From Clostridia bacterium (GTDB lineage Bacteria > Bacillota > Clostridia > TANB77 > CAG-508), in the NCBI GenBank assembly GCA_051891195.1, contig JBJFEZ010000020.1, forward strand, positions 1-51,702: a stretch of 51,702 nucleotides of DNA, in the 5' to 3' direction. Below the pieces are notes generated by a model. The model was not told the origin of the DNA. It saw only the letters and a list, made by a program, of their open reading frames with translations, and did no database searches. Positions within the stretch are counted from its first letter, which is position 1. Every line of letters begins with the position of its first letter. Below, in pieces: positions 1 to 9,643 of the stretch. Both the position numbers and the translations under genes were made by a program.

Positions 1-274
1 AACAGAATACGGAACAGAGAAGGCTTACTGGCTCGCTTCTCGCGGTGTCGTAGCTAATTCTGACTTTGCTGGCTTAGGCCCGGGAGCTGTTTACTCAGGA
101 GGTGGGATGACCTGTGCGGTTAGTTGCGACGGCGGCTTTGACTCTGACGGCGACTCTGACGTTGGCAGTTTGGCGGTGCGCCCCGTAGTTTGTCTAGACC
201 CTGCAGTCACAGTTGACCAAATACAAAAAATAGCAGACCAACCAGATTCTTGGGGAACTATAGAAGAAGAGTAG
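1..274 (+). CDS. DGR target protein, C-terminal fragment (5' end outside window); CLec-type C-terminal domain
   Basis: Frame +2 is open from base 2 to TAG at 272-274: TEYGTEKAYWLASRGVVANSDFAGLGPGAVYSGGGMTCAVSCDGGFDSDGDSDVGSLAVRPVVCLDPAVTVDQIQKIADQPDSWGTIEEE*. It contains the VR. YWLxSR...AVRPVV is typical of DGR target CLec domains. Absent from the ORF track because no start codon lies in the window. Confidence 0.9.
   Translation, partial: TEYGTEKAYWLASRGVVANSDFAGLGPGAVYSGGGMTCAVSCDGGFDSDGDSDVGSLAVRPVVCLDPAVTVDQIQKIADQPDSWGTIEEE
29..188 (+). repeat. DGR variable region (VR)
   Basis: Ungapped 160-nt match to 1193-1352 (offset 1164). By hand count there are 23 mismatches, 22 at TR adenines (15 A>G, 7 A>T, 0 A>C) and one T>A at 76/1240. 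Ends in the GC-rich GGCGGTGCGCCCC. Confidence 0.97.
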
Positions 275-293
275 AATTGTTGATAGGTATTTA

Positions 294-318
294 CCAAGAA
301 GGCCTTTGGTCTTCTTGG
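294..318 (+). terminator. Stem-loop downstream of DGR target gene (terminator and/or DGR cis hairpin)
   Basis: CCAAGAAGGCC-TTT-GGTCTTCTTGG: 11-bp stem with one G-U pair; a T-run follows a few nt later. Confidence 0.6.
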
Positions 319-360
319 ATGAAATTTTTTCAAAGTATAAAAATTATAAAAGGATAACAA

Positions 361-813
361 ATGGGAATTGTAAATATAGTAAAAAATATAAAACAAATTC
401 ACTCAAAAGACATTGTTTTAATTCGCATAGGTAAATTTTTTTATACATATGGGAAAGATGCATATATTTTATCATATTTGTTTCAATATAAATTAATGAA
501 TATTGAAGGTGAAAACGTATACTCTTGCGCTTTCCCTGCACAGTCTTTTTCAAAGGTAATTGCCCACATAGAAAATAAAAGAATAAATTATATAGTGGTA
601 GATAAAAGAAACAATTATGATATTGAAGAAAAATCTGACAATAAAAATTTAAATACATATGATGAACAGTTTGAAAAAGCAAAAAAATATGTGAACTTAA
701 AAATTAGAATAGAAAATATATCATATTATTTATTAAAACATATATACGATGAAAAGACTATACAAAAAATAAGTCAAATGGAAGAAATTATTAATGAAAC
801 AAGAAAAGTTTAA
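361..813 (+). CDS. MutS domain I-like DGR accessory protein (MSL-type)
   Basis: KQIHSKDIVLIRIGKFFYTYGKDAYILS...CAFP resembles the MutS N-terminal mismatch-binding domain (K...D.LL.FR.GDFYE.F..DA...GVP). Lies between VR and avd; RBS AAGGA. Confidence 0.75.
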   Translation: MGIVNIVKNIKQIHSKDIVLIRIGKFFYTYGKDAYILSYLFQYKLMNIEGENVYSCAFPAQSFSKVIAHIENKRINYIVVDKRNNYDIEEKSDNKNLNTYDEQFEKAKKYVNLKIRIENISYYLLKHIYDEKTIQKISQMEEIINETRKV

Positions 814-1144
814 AATTATACAATTTATTAGAGAATTTATTCTATATATAGATAACAATTTAGATAATTTCCCTAAAAAAGATATTGAACTAAAAAACAA
901 AATAAGAAATATAAGTTATGAATTACTGGAATTATCATATAAAGCTAATGTAACTTCTAACATAGAATATAAAAGAGACTTACTAGAAGAAATAATTGCA
1001 AAAATAAAAGTTATAGACTTTTTACTAAACCTATGTTATGAAAAACAAATTATAAACAGTAAAAGATATGTAAAATTTGGAGAAAAAATGGATGATATTT
1101 TAAAATATACATTGGGTTGGATAAAATCTATAAACCAAACTTAA
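794..1144 (+). CDS. avd: DGR accessory variability determinant (Avd-like four-helix bundle)
   Basis: 116 aa, predicted helical, with FPK near the N-terminus and C-terminal ...LGWIKS. Immediately upstream of the TR, the canonical avd position. Confidence 0.85.
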   Translation: MKQEKFKIIQFIREFILYIDNNLDNFPKKDIELKNKIRNISYELLELSYKANVTSNIEYKRDLLEEIIAKIKVIDFLLNLCYEKQIINSKRYVKFGEKMDDILKYTLGWIKSINQT

Positions 1145-1192
1145 AGTGTGTAAAAAATTTTCCCTCACATTATTCATAGGGCTTAGTTGTAT

Positions 1193-1352
1193 AGGCTCGC
1201 TTCTCGCGGTGTCGTAGCTAATTCTGACAATGCTAACTTTGGCCCGGGAGCTGTTAACTCAGAAGATGGGATGACCAATGCGAATAGTTGCAACAACGAC
1301 TTTAACTCTAACGGCAACTCTAACGATGACAGTTTGGCGGTGCGCCCCGTAG
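1193..1352 (+). repeat. DGR template repeat (TR)
   Basis: Adenine-rich copy of the VR with 12 AAY codons in the VR frame and 40 adenines, of which 22 differ in the VR. Followed by an IMH*-like diverged tail (CTTCTATAAAC versus VR TTTGTCTAGAC). Confidence 0.97.
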
Positions 1353-1513
1353 CTTCTATAAACTGTGGTTATGTAATTATAAATTGCATAAGAGATAATA
1401 TAGAAACAAACTAATGTCCTTTTGCTAAAAAGCAATAAACAAAAATAGATAAATTTATTTGTTAGTAATAAATTTAAAATTTGTGAAAGGGAGTAAATTT
1501 TAGAACTATTTTT

Positions 1514-1537
1514 AAGTAGCTAATTGCTACTTTTTTT
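1514..1537 (+). terminator. Intrinsic terminator ending the avd-TR transcript
   Basis: AAGTAGC-TAATT-GCTACTT followed by a T-run on +; abuts the RT stop codon. Confidence 0.7.
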
Positions 1538-2513
1538 AATTATTTATAAATTTATTTAAACTTTGTTGGACTTTAGAAGGACATAAATGTTTATAACACG
1601 CCATACTACTTAAAATGCTACATAAATTTATATAACCACTTTTATATTGAAAAAGTTTTTTATTTAGTTTTCTACTAACATTACGGTATCTAACATATTT
1701 TCCTTTTTTATTTCTTCCTAAAAAAGTAAAATTATTATTACTAGTATAAATTCTGCTTTTAGAGTTTAGTGTTAATTTTTCTTTACTTAAAAATTTTTGA
1801 ATTTCTAGTAAACAATATTTTAAATATGATTTTGATTGATGAAACAATAAAAAATCATCTTGATATCTAACATAATATTTAATTTTTAATTGTTCTTTAA
1901 CAAAATGGTCAAAATCATTTAAATAAAAAATGGCTAATACTTGACTTGTCATATTGCCAATACTTAAGCCTGCTTCATCACTATCTATAATAGAAAAAAC
2001 AATATTTAGAGCATCTTTGTCTTTTATTTTTCTCTTTAATTTTTGCTTTAAGATATTATGATCAATACTAGCAAAAAATTTGCTTATATCACATTTTAAA
2101 ATATAATACTTTTCATATTTTGTTCTACATATCTTATGATAGTTTGTAGCCAACTCTACTCCCTTTTTTGTTCCCATATTTTTTCTGCTTGCAACATTTA
2201 CATCTACTAAGCAAGGCAACAAAGCTGGATACAAAATATGTCTACTAACTAAATGATTAATAATTTTATCATGCATAGTTTGGCTAACAATACGCCTTTG
2301 CTTAGGCTCATAAATAGTAAAAACATTATAAGGTCCAACAACATAATTTTTATTTTTTAAAGTAGAATAAACCCTAGAAACATAAATACATTTATATTCT
2401 CTATAATTACGTACTTTTCTTTTATTTCTGGTATTTTTACAAATTTCATCAAATGCATCAAATATATTTTCAAGACAATAAATATTTTCATATAGATTAC
2501 TTTTTCTTTTCAT
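1536..2513 (-). CDS. DGR reverse transcriptase
   Basis: 325 aa. Motifs EPKQRRI, LKCDISKFF, GLSIGNMTSQ (DGR-type IGxxxSQ), YVRYQDD and FLG. No maturase or endonuclease domain. Confidence 0.95.
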   Translation of the reverse strand: MKRKSNLYENIYCLENIFDAFDEICKNTRNKRKVRNYREYKCIYVSRVYSTLKNKNYVVGPYNVFTIYEPKQRRIVSQTMHDKIINHLVSRHILYPALLPCLVDVNVASRKNMGTKKGVELATNYHKICRTKYEKYYILKCDISKFFASIDHNILKQKLKRKIKDKDALNIVFSIIDSDEAGLSIGNMTSQVLAIFYLNDFDHFVKEQLKIKYYVRYQDDFLLFHQSKSYLKYCLLEIQKFLSKEKLTLNSKSRIYTSNNNFTFLGRNKKGKYVRYRNVSRKLNKKLFQYKSGYINLCSILSSMACYKHLCPSKVQQSLNKFINN

Positions 2514-2525
2514 TTTATCACCACT

Positions 2526-2942
2526 TTAGTTAATAATTTTATATAATTTCTGTTGTATTGTATATAAAAACTCATATGCTTGGCTAATAGAAAGATCATT
2601 AATATTTGTTTTTAAAATTTTGTCAACAATACATTTTAAGTCCTCGTTGTGAATATAGTCATTAGATGTCAAAGAACCGTCATTTTCTAAAGAGACAATT
2701 TCAATATTATAAGGGGTATCTTTTAAAAGATTTAAATATTTTTGCAAAGAGTTTATAGGAAATCCACACTTTACTATGGTTTCATTTAAATTTCCTAATT
2801 TTAAATTTAAATAATTAGACATAACTTTAGCATCATTATCAATAAAAATAAAAAATAGTCCTACTTTAAATAGATAAAATGTGTTTGGTTTATAATTAGA
2901 ACTGCTCTTTAACTCTTGATATTTTTTATATATTTTACTCAT
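2526..2942 (-). CDS. Mini-MutS-like protein (domain I plus MutS C-terminal-like helix pair)
   Basis: YQELK...YLFKVGLFFIFIDNDA...KCGFP resembles MutS domain I. C-terminal ILKTNINDLSISQAYEFLYTIQQKL resembles the MutS C-terminal oligomerisation motif. Start set at ATG 2942 after GGAGG. Confidence 0.75.
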   Translation of the reverse strand: MSKIYKKYQELKSSSNYKPNTFYLFKVGLFFIFIDNDAKVMSNYLNLKLGNLNETIVKCGFPINSLQKYLNLLKDTPYNIEIVSLENDGSLTSNDYIHNEDLKCIVDKILKTNINDLSISQAYEFLYTIQQKLYKIIN

Positions 2943-3048
2943 ATGTACCTCCATTTTTTATTATAAAAAATTTTGAAAAGATTCTGTAAACATTGATACA
3001 AGCTTTAATAAATTTATATATTTTACATATATTGGTATACTATATGTA

Positions 3049-3077
3049 AGTATACTATACTAAAAAACAACTGTCAA
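3049..3077 (-). promoter_or_regulatory. Sigma-A promoter for the mini-MutS/RT operon
   Basis: Minus strand TTGACA (3077-3072), 17-nt spacer, TATACT (3054-3049). Confidence 0.7.
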
Positions 3078-3160
3078 GAGATAATCTTATATGTTAATAT
3101 ACTATATATATGTATAGCAAATACAATAAAAAATAAGTATCTTACAATGTGGAGGAAATT

Positions 3161-3388
3161 ATGAAAAATTTTGGAAGAGTAGATATGACTTTAGATGAAT
3201 ATTTAAAAAAACATAAGATAAGTAAGTCTAGTTTAACAAGAAAAACAGAATTGCAGTATAGCCAAATTTTAAGGTATTGTAGAAATGAAGCTCAAAAAAT
3301 AGATTTATCAATATTAGCTAAACTATGTACGGTTTTAGAATGTGACATAACCGACATATTAAAATTAACAAGAGGGAAACTAGAATAA
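3161..3388 (+). CDS. Cro/CI (XRE)-type HTH transcriptional regulator
   Basis: LDEYLKKHKISKSSLTRKTELQYSQILRYC...IDLSILAKLCTVLECDITDIL; GGAGG precedes ATG 3161. Confidence 0.85.
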   Translation: MKNFGRVDMTLDEYLKKHKISKSSLTRKTELQYSQILRYCRNEAQKIDLSILAKLCTVLECDITDILKLTRGKLE

Positions 3389-3519
3389 TTTTTATCAAAT
3401 ATAGCAGGAGTTTAATCAACTGCTATTTTTATTTCATTTTTAGTATAGAAATATTGTAAAATTTGTAAAAATCAAGTATAATAGATAATGTATTTTAATG
3501 TAAAGGGAATGATTTATAA

Positions 3520-4536
3520 ATGGAAGAAAATAAAAAACGTATGCTAACAGGGGATAGACCTACAGGAAGACTACATATTGGTCATTATTTTGGATCTTTA
3601 AAAACAAGAGTAGAAATGCAAAATAGTGGCAAGTATGACCCATATATTTTAATTGCAGATGTTCAAGCATTAACAGATAATTTTACAAACCCAGAAAAAG
3701 TAAGGGAAAATGTAAAACAGGTTATATTAGACTATTTATCTGTAGGAATTGACCCTGAAAAAACAACCATATATATTCAGTCAATGGTACCAGAAACAGC
3801 TGAACTAACAGTATTTTATTCAAATTTGGTAACTATTGCAAGACTAGAAAGAAACCCAACTGTAAAAACAGAAATAGCTCAAAAAAAAGAAGTGTTTGGA
3901 GAAAGTGTTACATATGGTTTTTTGGGATACCCAGTAAGCCAAGCAGCAGATATTACAGTAGTAGATGGTGCCTATGTACCTGTTGGGGAAGACCAATTAC
4001 CTTTAATAGAACAATGCAGAGAAATAGTAAGAAAATTTAATAGTATATATGGAGAAGTATTAACAGAACCTGAACCTGTACTTTCAACAACAAAAAGAAT
4101 TAAAGGATTAGACGGGAATGATAAAATGGGCAAATCTTTAGGAAATGCTATTTATTTATCAGATACTGAAGAAGAAATAAATAAAAAGGTAATGAGCGCA
4201 GTAACAGACCCATCTAGAATAAAAAAGGACGACTTAGGAAATCCTGAAGTTTGTATGGTTGCATATTATCACAATTTATTTAGCAAAGAGGACGAAGTAA
4301 AAACAGTTTGCGAAGAATGCAAAGCAGGCAAAAGGGGCTGTGTTGCTTGTAAAAAACAATTAGCATATAACATAAATGAATTTTTAAACCCAATACGTGA
4401 AAAAAGAAAATATTATGAAGAAAGACCTGAACTAGTAGAAAATATACTAAAAGAGGGAACTGAAAAAACTAGAAAAACAGCTAAAGAAACTATGAAAAAA
4501 GTAAAAAAAGCAATGAAACTAGATTATTTTGAATAG
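3520..4536 (+). CDS. trpS: Tryptophanyl-tRNA synthetase
   Basis: TGDRPTGRLHIGH, VPVGEDQ, KMGKS. Confidence 0.97.
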   Translation: MEENKKRMLTGDRPTGRLHIGHYFGSLKTRVEMQNSGKYDPYILIADVQALTDNFTNPEKVRENVKQVILDYLSVGIDPEKTTIYIQSMVPETAELTVFYSNLVTIARLERNPTVKTEIAQKKEVFGESVTYGFLGYPVSQAADITVVDGAYVPVGEDQLPLIEQCREIVRKFNSIYGEVLTEPEPVLSTTKRIKGLDGNDKMGKSLGNAIYLSDTEEEINKKVMSAVTDPSRIKKDDLGNPEVCMVAYYHNLFSKEDEVKTVCEECKAGKRGCVACKKQLAYNINEFLNPIREKRKYYEERPELVENILKEGTEKTRKTAKETMKKVKKAMKLDYFE

Positions 4537-4550
4537 AGGTAAAACACATT

Positions 4551-6435
<1,885 letters not shown>

Positions 6436-6509
6436 AATTTTCATTTGATTTTCTTACGTTTACTACTTGAAAAACAAAATAAAATATGATAAACTAAAAA
6501 AGTATATTT

Positions 6510-6766
6510 TAAAAGCAACCAAAAAGGACAACACAATTTTGAAAAAAGGCTTACAGAGAGCTAAACAGTTGGTGAAAGTTTAGTAGCAACTTAACAATAT
6601 TGTTATCACCTTTTAGCTGTTTCTTTGAAACAATAGTAAAAGAAAACGTATTCCTGCGTTAAAGGTTAAAAAGAGAAAAGAAAAAATAAAATTCTTTTAA
6701 ATTAGGTGGTACCGCGGAAAACAAAGCCATTTCGTCCTAAAACATATTGGATGAAATGGCTTTTTT
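6510..6766 (+). promoter_or_regulatory. T-box riboswitch (Ile)
   Basis: Stem I AGAGA and GGTGAAA elements, candidate specifier ATC at 6605-6607, T-box AGGTGGTACCGCG at 6704-6716 and terminator at 6723-6766; upstream of ileS. Confidence 0.93.
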
Positions 6767-6851
6767 GTGTCAATGGGGATGTAAGTTTTTGACACAGAAA
6801 GAAATATTAATAAAAACAGTTTGTGTCAAAAACTTAGTCTCCATTGATACA
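6766..6851. repeat. Inverted doublet of ~30-nt palindromic units (REP/REPIN-like)
   Basis: 6766-6796 TGTGTCAATGGGGATGTAAGTTTTTGACACA and 6822-6851 TGTGTCAAAAACTTAGTCTCCATTGATACA are imperfect reverse complements. Each is itself bounded by TGTGTCAA..TTGAYACA. Confidence 0.65.
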
Positions 6852-6874
6852 AAGTTTAAGAGGGGGAAAATAAA

Positions 6875-9643
6875 ATGTCAGAAGAAAAACAAGATTATGG
6901 TAAAACATTAAATTTGCCAAGTACAGAGTTTCCTATGAGAGGAAATTTACCAGAAAATGAACCAAAAACAAAAGCAGAAGTTTTTGATAATGGTTTATAT
7001 GAGAAAATGTTAAAGAAAAATGAAGGGCATAAAACATATATATTACACGATGGACCTCCATATGCAAACGGAGAAATTCATATGGGACACGCCTTAAACA
7101 AAGTATTAAAAGATACAGTTAACCGTTTTAAAAGCTTGCAAGGATACCAAACAATATATATTCCAGGATATGACACACACGGACTTCCTACAGAAAAAAA
7201 AGCAATACAAGCATTAGGACTTAATAGAGAAGAATTAAGTGTTTCAAAATTTAGAGATACTTGCCGTGAATTTGCTTTAGAATATGTTGACAAACAAACA
7301 GAAGGGTTTAAAAGACTAGGCGTTTTGGGGGATTGGGAGCACCCATATATTACACTTGAACCTGAATTTGAAGCAAGACAAATTGAAATATTTGCAGAAA
7401 TGTATAAAAAGGGATATATTTATAAAGGTTTAAAACCAGTTCACTGGTGTATTGATTGTGAAACAGCTTTAGCAGAAGCTGAAATAGAATATAAAGATAT
7501 TGTGTCTCCTTCTATTTATGTAAAATTTCCAGTAGTAGATGGAAAAGGAGTATTAGATACAGATACAAGTATTGTAATTTGGACAACAACTCCTTGGACA
7601 CTTCCAGGAAACACAGGTATTGCTGTTGGAGGAGAATATGATTATAGCTTAATAGAATGTGAAAAAGGAAAGCTAGTAATGGCAACACTTTTAGTAGACG
7701 AAGTAATGGAAAAGATTGGCGCAAAAGACTATAAAACATTAAAAGTAGTAAAAGGTGCAGAATTAGAAAATATACTTTGTCAACATCCATTCTTAGATAG
7801 AACTTCAAGAGTAGTACTTGGAGGAGAAAATGACGTAGCAGTAGATTTAAGTACAGGTACTGGTGCAGTACATACAGCACCTAGTTATGGTAAAGAAGAC
7901 TATTTGTGTGGTTTAAGAACTGGACTAGATATTATTGTTACTGTTAATGGAAAAGGTTACCAAACAGAGGGCGCAGGACCTTTTGTAGGACTTTCTTGTG
8001 ATGAATCTAACAAAGTAATACCAGAATGGTTAGAAGAACACGGTTACTTATTAAGAAAAGAAGGAATAAACCACTCTTATCCACATTGCTGGAGATGTAA
8101 AAATCCAATTATATTTAGAGCAACAGACCAATGGTTTGCATCTGTAGATGGATTTAGAAAAGAAACTTTAGAAGCTATAAAAACTGTTAACTGGACACCT
8201 AGTTGGGGAGAAGAAAGAATTGCAAGTATGGTAAAAGATAGAAATGACTGGTGTATTTCAAGACAACGTACTTGGGGAGTTCCAATTCCAATATTCTATT
8301 GTAAAGAATGTGGAAAAGAATATGCTACAGAAGAAAGCTTTAAAAAGATAGAAAAATTATTTAGAGAGAAAGGTTCAAATGCTTGGTTTGATTTAGACGA
8401 AAAAGATTTACTACCAGAAGGAGCTAAATGTGAAAAATGTGGTTCACACGAATTTAAAAAAGAAACAGATATTATGGATGTTTGGTTTGACTCTGGTACA
8501 ACATATCAAGGTGTATTAGTAGAAAGAGGACTTCCATTCCCAGCAGACCTTTACTTAGAAGGACACGACCAATATAGAGGATGGTTCCAATCATCGCTTT
8601 TAACATCTGTTGCAGCTAAAGGAGTTGCCCCATATAAGGCAATATTAACACATGGTTGGGTAGTAGATGCACAAGGAAACAAAATGTCTAAATCTTTAGG
8701 AAATGGTATTAGCCCACAAGAGATTATAAACGAATATGGTGCAGATATTTTAAGACTATGGGTATTAGCTTCAGATTTCAAATCTGATATTAGTATTTCA
8801 AGAGATATTTTAAAACAAATTAGTGAAGCTTATAGAAAAATAAGAAACACAGCAAGATACATTTTAGGAAATACATCAGACTTTGACCCAGAAAAACCAG
8901 TTGCATATAAAGATTTGGAAGAAATAGATAAATGGGCTTTAGCTAAATTAAATAAATTAGTAAAAAGTTGCACAGAAAATTATGAGTTATTCAACTTCCA
9001 TTTAGTATATCACGACATAAACCAATTCTGTGTATCGGATATGAGTAATTTCTATTTAGACATTATAAAAGACAGACTATATACTTCTAAAGCAGATGCC
9101 TTAGAAAGACGCTCAGCACAAACAACTATGTATATAATATTAGATGCTTTAGTAAAAATGGTAGCACCAATAATTTGTTATACAGCAGAAGAAATATGGA
9201 AATATATGAAACACACTAAAAAAGAACAAGTAGAAAGTGTAATGCTAAGTGATTGGCCAGAATTAAATGCAGAATATGATAATGAAGAACTAGAAGAAAA
9301 GTGGAATTATATCTTAAAATTAAAAGAATTAGTAGCTAAAGAGTTAGAATTAGCAAGAGCTGAAAAAGTAATAGGACATTCTCTAAATGCAAAAGTTACT
9401 TTATTTGCTAATGAAAAAGAGTATCAATTCTTAAATGAAAATAAAGAACTTTTAGAAACAGTATTTATTGTTTCTGACTTAGAAATAAAAGAAAATGAAA
9501 GAAAAGATGAAACAAAACTTGGTGTAAAAGTAGAAACAGCAGAAGGAGAAAAATGTGAAAGGTGTTGGAAATACTCTAAGGAAGTAGGAAAAAGCAGCGA
9601 ACATCCAACTCTTTGCCACAGATGTGTTGAAGCTATTAGCTAA
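6875..9643 (+). CDS. ileS: Isoleucyl-tRNA synthetase (type 1)
   Basis: HDGPPYANG, HMGH, WCISRQR, KMSKS and a C-terminal CERC..CHRC zinc finger. Confidence 0.98.
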   Translation: MSEEKQDYGKTLNLPSTEFPMRGNLPENEPKTKAEVFDNGLYEKMLKKNEGHKTYILHDGPPYANGEIHMGHALNKVLKDTVNRFKSLQGYQTIYIPGYDTHGLPTEKKAIQALGLNREELSVSKFRDTCREFALEYVDKQTEGFKRLGVLGDWEHPYITLEPEFEARQIEIFAEMYKKGYIYKGLKPVHWCIDCETALAEAEIEYKDIVSPSIYVKFPVVDGKGVLDTDTSIVIWTTTPWTLPGNTGIAVGGEYDYSLIECEKGKLVMATLLVDEVMEKIGAKDYKTLKVVKGAELENILCQHPFLDRTSRVVLGGENDVAVDLSTGTGAVHTAPSYGKEDYLCGLRTGLDIIVTVNGKGYQTEGAGPFVGLSCDESNKVIPEWLEEHGYLLRKEGINHSYPHCWRCKNPIIFRATDQWFASVDGFRKETLEAIKTVNWTPSWGEERIASMVKDRNDWCISRQRTWGVPIPIFYCKECGKEYATEESFKKIEKLFREKGSNAWFDLDEKDLLPEGAKCEKCGSHEFKKETDIMDVWFDSGTTYQGVLVERGLPFPADLYLEGHDQYRGWFQSSLLTSVAAKGVAPYKAILTHGWVVDAQGNKMSKSLGNGISPQEIINEYGADILRLWVLASDFKSDISISRDILKQISEAYRKIRNTARYILGNTSDFDPEKPVAYKDLEEIDKWALAKLNKLVKSCTENYELFNFHLVYHDINQFCVSDMSNFYLDIIKDRLYTSKADALERRSAQTTMYIILDALVKMVAPIICYTAEEIWKYMKHTKKEQVESVMLSDWPELNAEYDNEELEEKWNYILKLKELVAKELELARAEKVIGHSLNAKVTLFANEKEYQFLNENKELLETVFIVSDLEIKENERKDETKLGVKVETAEGEKCERCWKYSKEVGKSSEHPTLCHRCVEAIS

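Follow-up and report, generated by a model that had tools for sequence, protein, structure and literature searches.

A Clostridia diversity-generating retroelement of the inverted class, from a lineage in which the convergent layout is common

Diversity-generating retroelements (DGRs) with a reversed reverse transcriptase (RT) gene have been in print for some time: the text of Schillinger 2012 (PMC3521204) named them "inverted DGRs", brought Shewanella baltica OS155, Vibrio sp. RC586 and Photobacterium angustum S14 together as Group 4, concluded that a single transcription unit for RT mRNA and template RNA is not required, and treated the inversion as a rare, one-time event. The text of Wu 2018 (PMC5758913) states that the template repeat (TR) and the RT can occupy different strands, defines the MutS-like (MSL) accessory gene, and assigns MSL cassettes to Architecture D. 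The stretch of DNA analysed here, called the window below, is the whole 51,702-nt contig C20 (JBJFEZ010000020.1) of a Clostridia genome of 1.13 Mb, 61 contigs and 27.8% G+C that is rated 92% complete; the first base of the contig is position 1 of the window. The cassette at its beginning is a genuine DGR of this published inverted class, and its layout is the commoner one in its lineage. What it adds, namely repeated RT flips, a covarying template RNA closed by a terminator, and a second MSL gene tied to the RT, is of modest specialist interest.

The components of the cassette are carried on both strands. The (+) strand holds the 3' end of the target gene (2..274, 90 codons of an open reading frame (ORF) that is open at its 5' end, the contig beginning at 1), MSL1 (361..813), encoding an accessory protein with MutS domain I only (PF01624 MutS_I, E 5.7e-9) and overlapping the start of the next gene, avd (accessory variability determinant; 794..1144; PF22296 bAvd, 46.6 bits with a cut-off of 40), and then the TR and a terminator. 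Facing that terminator on the (-) strand are the gene of a 325-aa DGR-type RT (1536..2513; RVT_1, 1e-16) and, 13 nt upstream of it, a second MutS-domain-I paralogue, MSL2 (2526..2954; PF01624, E 4.4e-9), and a Cro/C1-type helix-turn-helix (HTH) gene (3149..3388, +; HTH_26, PF13443, E 3.7e-16) diverges from MSL2-RT. The ORF list, the Pfam matches and the terminator scan all bear out this convergent layout, which had been proposed in a first-pass annotation of the letters together with a DGR-type RT on the (-) strand; IGNMTSQ and YQDD are both found in the translation. The genes past the HTH gene are presumably trpS, an Obg-like GTPase gene and ileS, names that we assigned from the translations, and the cassette is therefore chromosomal.

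The variable repeat (VR; 30..188, +) and the TR (1194..1352, +; 159 nt with 39 adenines and 8 in-frame AAC codons) align without gaps, and 21 of their 22 mismatches fall at TR adenines, the only other one being A at VR76 for T at TR1240. The chance of at least 21 such mismatches among 22 is P=2.6e-12 by a composition-based binomial, so that the adenine-specific pair reported in the first-pass annotation is real, while its count of "22 of 23" is off by one. BLAST extension of the alignment to 199/1363 gives 23 of 26 mismatches at TR adenines. Read in the frame of the target, all 21 changed adenines, and 34 of the 39 adenines of the TR, occupy codon position 1 or 2. The TR has a G+C content of 51% against 27.8% for the genome. 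The last 23 nt of the VR (166..188, +) are GC-rich and mismatch-free against the TR end (1330-1352), and the two repeats diverge from 189; identical GC-rich ends followed by divergence appear to match, as expected, the pattern of the initiation of mutagenic homing sequences, IMH and IMH*. A DNA fold placed no GC-rich inverted repeat immediately downstream of this IMH-like block; the text of Wu 2018 (PMC5758913) reports such a repeat for just 127 of 372 DGRs. The stop codon of the target lies 86 nt beyond the VR end and is followed by an 11-bp hairpin (293..319, +), seen in the DNA fold and not called by the terminator scan, which possibly marks the end of the target transcript.

RT homologues were tabulated by orientation in a survey set of 80 loci (numbered with L), with RTs 59-75% identical to that of the window and with MSL1, avd, MSL2 and the HTH gene located by tblastn; the related public records are titled uncultured Clostridia and come from animal and human guts. 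The 75 RT rows, the window included, comprise 39 convergent, 27 co-oriented and 9 that are unreadable at contig ends, which means that the homologues are not all co-oriented and that the convergent layout is the majority (39/66 readable rows). Six further rows were left out of the tree, four of them for stops inside the match (L072, L073, L089, L112) and two, taken as L109 and L111, for a short RT match; this group splits into 3 convergent rows, 2 co-oriented ones and 1 that is unreadable. Twelve loci from the genomes of relatives, a set that overlaps the larger one (L025 = L037), divide into 5 convergent, 4 co-oriented and 3 fragments, and the distant genus RTs L018-L024, with flanks of 1.5 kb, were not tabulated because their context is too short. 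Of the 38 other convergent loci, 30 contain a TR/VR pair in which TR adenines account for 80% or more of the mismatches and the TR is opposite to the RT, as exemplified by L037 (23/23 at adenines), L045 (24/24) and L090 (24/24), and therefore the layout goes with diversified targets.

On the RT tree, orientation needs at least 7 changes, and the well-supported branches alone force 4-5 of them; an AU test rejects the grouping of all convergent rows in one clade (p=0.0123). The extent of a flip is visible when the convergent locus L068 is compared with the co-oriented locus L079: MSL1-avd-TR and the non-coding element that follows the TR are collinear, the RT block alone is reversed, and the breakpoints lie a few tens of nt from the ends of the RT ORF. 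Both avd and MSL2 occur near the RT in 25 loci (20 convergent, 5 co-oriented), and in every one of these MSL2 is placed past the RT and on the other strand from avd; in MSL2-bearing loci the flip thus appears to involve the RT ORF alone. MSL2 is absent from 14 convergent loci and is therefore not required for the layout.

The non-coding element just mentioned, a conserved and structured segment of ~100 nt, lies 3' of the TR at 1436..1545 (+), ends in the terminator, and is referred to here as Sp-like because it holds the same place, downstream of the TR, as the Sp segment of Bordetella, which according to the text of Handa 2018 binds Avd and makes cDNA synthesis processive. The covariance model built for it, R1, scores 69.7 bits in the window, where it has a single match in 51.7 kb, and gives 85 matches in 87 sources. 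Its RNAalifold consensus (49-sequence alignment) contains 20 pairs, compensatory double changes being seen at 14, and TTGTTAGTA and GAAAGGGA lie inside the long helix; the single-sequence fold of the window has the same shape as the consensus (z -2.81), and a search of window 1-3600 against Rfam, with E up to 1, returned 0 matches.

The element is closed by an intrinsic-terminator-like hairpin with a T-run at 1514..1537 (+; stem-loop 1514-1532), which is one-directional, is the sole terminator-like site in 1-3600, and has its T-run overlapped by the RT stop codon (1536-1538). A hairpin and T-run follow the Sp motif in 37/39 convergent and in 19/20 motif-bearing co-oriented loci, and the stem varies in sequence between loci while its pairing is kept by compensatory changes. 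In 7 co-oriented loci the Sp motif is absent from the avd-RT gap, and in 5 of these avd adjoins the RT and the TR is elsewhere. Template RNA/Avd and RT are encoded on opposing strands, facing a terminator conserved to this degree among convergent loci, and would for that reason be made as separate transcripts, and the separate expression proposed in the first-pass annotation holds up to that extent. Several co-oriented loci place the ribosome-binding site of the RT ~10-30 nt after the hairpin, so the RT would have to be read there by read-through. Since the same hairpin and T-run stand between TR and RT in nearly all motif-bearing co-oriented relatives, a partial transcriptional uncoupling of RT and template may be a property of the lineage rather than of the inversion.

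Some loci depart from the usual arrangement of these elements. The co-oriented subclade L047, L052, L056, L058 and L065 has an avd-RT gap of just 41-84 nt, and in L058 the RT is followed downstream by the TR (6978-7147) and the Sp element (7227-7346), an avd-RT-TR order that is also seen in L047, where an Sp copy follows the RT (3417-3524); the RT lineage therefore contains three cassette orders. Sp-like copies are repeated in L047 (459-562, 1020-1124 and the copy at 3417-3524, all +) and in L060 (9373-9483 and 9937-10044, +; 11256-11364, 11671-11776 and 12162-12271, -). These copies sit within repeat units of ~400-560 nt that are 78-94% alike and whose mismatches have no adenine bias, and the sets of 3 and 5 look like arrays of template-RNA genes serving one RT.

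Upstream of MSL2-RT, the best sigma-70-like site in 1-3600 (TTGACA-17-TATACT, 11/12; 3049..3077, -) is the candidate promoter for the two genes, and both of its hexamers are conserved in the five HTH-bearing loci (window, L032, L033, L038, L043). Three copies of TATACTATA, a candidate operator, overlap the divergent promoter region (3034..3108) and are present in 5/5 loci with the HTH gene, whose homologues in L032, L033, L038 and L043 are 73-80% identical and occupy the same position; the gene is absent from the other members of the window's clade. We infer from this co-occurrence that the HTH protein may bind at the TATACTATA repeats, and the HTH gene is a candidate regulator of MSL2-RT. That the RT operon could be induced by itself, and mutagenesis perhaps be switched on in this way, is plausible. 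L038 (5213-5587, +) and L043 (582-923, +) share an additional conserved ORF, ~110-124 aa long and unassigned to any family, which separates MSL2 from the promoter region and is co-directional with MSL2-RT; it has no equivalent in the window.

These observations are explained with good confidence by a chromosomal MSL-plus-Avd DGR made of two convergent modules, with a layout that is inherited, common in the lineage, and derived from evolutionary flips of the RT ORF alone. The (+) module would supply MSL1, Avd and a template RNA that consists of the TR and the ~100-nt Sp-like segment closed by the intrinsic terminator, and the (-) module would supply MSL2 and the RT from a promoter of their own, beside which stands the divergent XRE-type HTH gene. 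By analogy with Bordetella, as treated in the text of Handa 2018, RT and Avd would meet the template RNA in trans; the RT, primed at a site within the Sp-like segment, would then copy the TR while misreading adenines, and the cDNA would replace the VR. One possible reason why flips are tolerated is that the same hairpin and T-run follow the template RNA in both orientations.

Several points weigh against this explanation. The convergent group used in the AU test was defined post hoc, after the tree had been seen. The hairpin and T-run could be a structural or attenuating element and not a full terminator, and promoter-like sites are not enriched (30 vs 26 +/- 5.1 in shuffles). No RNA run was found among the matching public runs, in which the best share of the window's words was 0.17. 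The contig start cuts the target gene 29 nt upstream of the VR, and a second VR copy of the same genome, on contig C51, is split by an insertion sequence, evidence that target genes here are subject to decay.

Among other explanations, an assembly or binning artefact of a metagenome-assembled genome comes to mind since the contig begins inside the cassette, 29 nt before the VR, and since TR/VR repeats are known assembly breakers. The junction from TR to RT is, on the other hand, internal to the 51.7-kb contig, and two contigs from other studies, one of 4108 nt in run X2 (record 12; collinear with window 354-3092, 239 differences) and one in run X5 (record 19; covering window 1383-2917), run from the TR across the terminator and the reversed RT into MSL2, with order and orientation unchanged. 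As these contigs and 38 further public loci keep the layout, the inversion noticed in the first-pass annotation stands, and an artefact is hardly credible. A biological switch would be a different matter: the RT could be a phase-variable invertible cassette, flipped by a recombinase between hypermutation coupled by read-through and hypermutation driven independently, which would suit the occurrence of both orientations in one RT lineage, the several changes on the tree, and breakpoints that hug the RT ORF. Such a switch is very unlikely in view of the junctions, where none of 227 AT-rich pairs of inverted repeats flanking the RT is convincing (the best is 18 nt at 94%), no inverted sequence is shared by L068, L079 and the window, and no strand-changing joint at the RT borders is listed in the contigs, from which rare forms would escape. 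No recombinase is found among the ORFs of 1-7000, RT pairs at least 80% identical agree in orientation in 38/38 cases, and the closest discordant pair is 75.6% identical. Lacking flanking repeats and a recombinase, and with close pairs in agreement, the flips are therefore best seen as evolutionary events and not as a fast switch.

It could also be argued that the cassette is a decaying relic, with VR differences that are historical and an RT that, uncoupled from its template, no longer drives retrohoming. The C51 copy of the VR interrupted by an IS3-like element, the adjoining target truncated in the assembly, and the RT match of L032/L033 split over two frames would agree with this; it is nevertheless improbable, given that all six cassette ORFs of the window are intact, that the RT keeps YQDD, that the pairing of the Sp-like RNA is kept, and that diversification at adenines is widespread in the other convergent loci (30/38). 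A further possibility goes beyond the two-module explanation preferred here and is put forward as tentative and rather doubtful: an autonomous, terminator-bounded template RNA gene, combined with an RT that is incompletely coupled to it and has for that reason flipped repeatedly, would make hypermutation an inducible, two-key system. The template arrays (3 in L047, 5 in L060) can be taken as such an autonomous RNA gene multiplied. A convergent RT would come under the MSL2 promoter, which in the window's subclade adjoins a presumed XRE-type repressor gene and is overlain by the TATACTATA repeats, and template and Avd would be constitutive while RT and MSL2 would be regulated. RT transcripts that lack termination might also run antisense into the template.

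Among solved chains the RT is closest to 8ub7_A, which has 328 aa, is titled 'Reverse transcriptase' and is taken here to be the Bordetella bRT (E 8.4e-28, with residues 2-269 aligned). NCBIfam matches of the RT were all under their cut-offs, in libraries without a DGR-specific RT model. In L032 and L033 (8013-8943, -), the RT match lies in two adjacent frames, covering residues 1-58 and 59-310, which suggests a frameshift or a sequencing error; L033 has nonetheless a TR/VR pair with 18/19 mismatches at adenines.

Among the accessory proteins, Avd also matches NF033474 (E 3.4e-12), under the cut-off of that family. MSL1 adjoins avd in related loci as well. The MSL1 profile (50 sequences) gives a weak match to MSH6 (E 0.0072) and the MSL2 profile (27 sequences) matches residues 19-102 of E. 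coli MutS (E 1.1e-7); when MSL1 and MSL2 were each searched as single sequences with phmmer, no MutS appeared among the PDB chains, the profiles alone matching. With respect to the GDFYE stretch of E. coli MutS, MSL2 keeps the Phe, which is invariant, and has the Glu replaced. The two proteins are paralogous (hhalign 98.1%, E 6.8e-14), and no HRDC match was found among the six cassette ORFs. The true start of MSL2 is probably the M at 2942, because its homologues begin MSKIY. In Bacteroides, deletion of the host mutS raised VR mutagenesis ~5- to 10-fold according to the text of Macadangdang 2024 (10.1101/2024.11.15.621889), which provides a rationale for an accessory protein with MutS domain I; a reasonable guess is that the MSL proteins would shield the mismatched heteroduplex from repair. 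At L023 (G057:C6), a much more distant RT, 35% identical, is accompanied by a gene resembling MSL2, 45% identical and encoded close by in the other direction (440-823, +, and 1633-2397, -), and the association of MSL2 with the RT may thus reach beyond the RT lineage of the window.

The target fragment of the window aligns at 47% identity with residues 334-410 of the target of L025, a protein of 424 aa with a pilin-like N-terminus. Full-length related targets have 390-525 aa and a KGITLIALVITIIVLLILAG-type N-terminus (for example L025 10234-11508, -; L093 8183-9757, -; L114 3547-4755, +), and Pfam N_methyl is the top or a near-top match in 8 of 10 target N-termini and in L025, always below threshold (13.3-19 bits vs 21.2). 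The diversified part is probably a lectin-like tip at the C-terminus of a surface protein, itself probably pilin-like; NCBIfam has no family for the target or for MSL1. The genome of the window contains at least 20 tblastn matches to the N-terminal part of the target, many of them at contig ends, and a search for the 5' part of the window's own target did not find it, the words of the contig end occurring in no other contig. The second VR-bearing target copy lies on the (-) strand of C51 (5783-5639 and 4203-4097), its VR being split by the IS3-like insertion of ~1.4 kb with transposase ORFs at ~4237-5609 (+). Compared with the TR, the 5' part of this VR is mismatched at 24 adenines and at 8 other positions, the 3' part with the sequence just after the VR is a 95% match to window 148-254, and the C51 contig, like C20, ends just upstream of the VR.

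The layout itself carries little weight as a finding, since the reversed RT, and the conclusion that RT and template can do without a shared transcript, have been in print since 2012; with inverted DGRs described in the texts of 2012 (PMC3521204) and 2018 (PMC5758913), and with the convergent arrangement being the majority in its lineage, the novelty entertained in the first-pass annotation falls away. Of more use are the dozens of natural examples in both orientations, which form a comparative set for the ratio of RT to template RNA. The covarying Sp-like RNA and its terminator, which no Rfam family covers, mark the template RNA's 3' end for a Gram-positive DGR. The second MSL paralogue, tied to the RT, bears on the function of MutS-like accessory proteins at a time when host MutS is known to restrain retrohoming.

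The DGR of Bordetella phage BPP-1 (mtd-avd-TR-brt) shares with the window an Avd and a related RT (8ub7_A, E 8.4e-28, the chain taken here as bRT). It also shares the adenine-specific transfer from TR to VR, the GC-rich IMH-like end, and a non-coding segment downstream of the TR, as given in the text of Handa 2018. In contrast to the co-oriented RT of BPP-1, the RT of the window is convergent, and the window further differs by its chromosomal cassette, its MSL genes, the terminator that closes its template RNA, and the lack of a GC-rich inverted repeat just past the IMH-like end. The pilus-tip DGRs of Bacteroides, in the text of 10.1101/2024.11.15.621889, have in common with the window a gut host, Avd and Msl, and pilus-associated surface targets, but they belong to another phylum and act on type V pili, whereas the targets here have a type-IV-pilin-like N-terminus (N_methyl being sub-threshold); RT orientation is not discussed in that text, in which neither 'orientation' nor 'opposite strand' occurs.

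Architecture D, as laid out by Wu 2018, shares the small MutS-like gene and avd, without HRDC, and the window differs from it by two MSL paralogues, of which the first accompanies avd and the second the RT; the main text on the 16 MSL DGRs (PMC5758913) makes no mention of a double-MSL cassette, and its supplement may list the exact layout. The closest likeness is to the inverted DGRs in the text of Schillinger 2012, which, like the window, have the RT on one strand and the TR, the VR and the target gene on the other. These are three gamma-proteobacterial cases, likened by layout alone to the Clostridia cassette described here, and the inversion that was rare and a one-time event there is the majority state here (39/66) with several changes of orientation, in a cassette to which the MSL genes are an addition.

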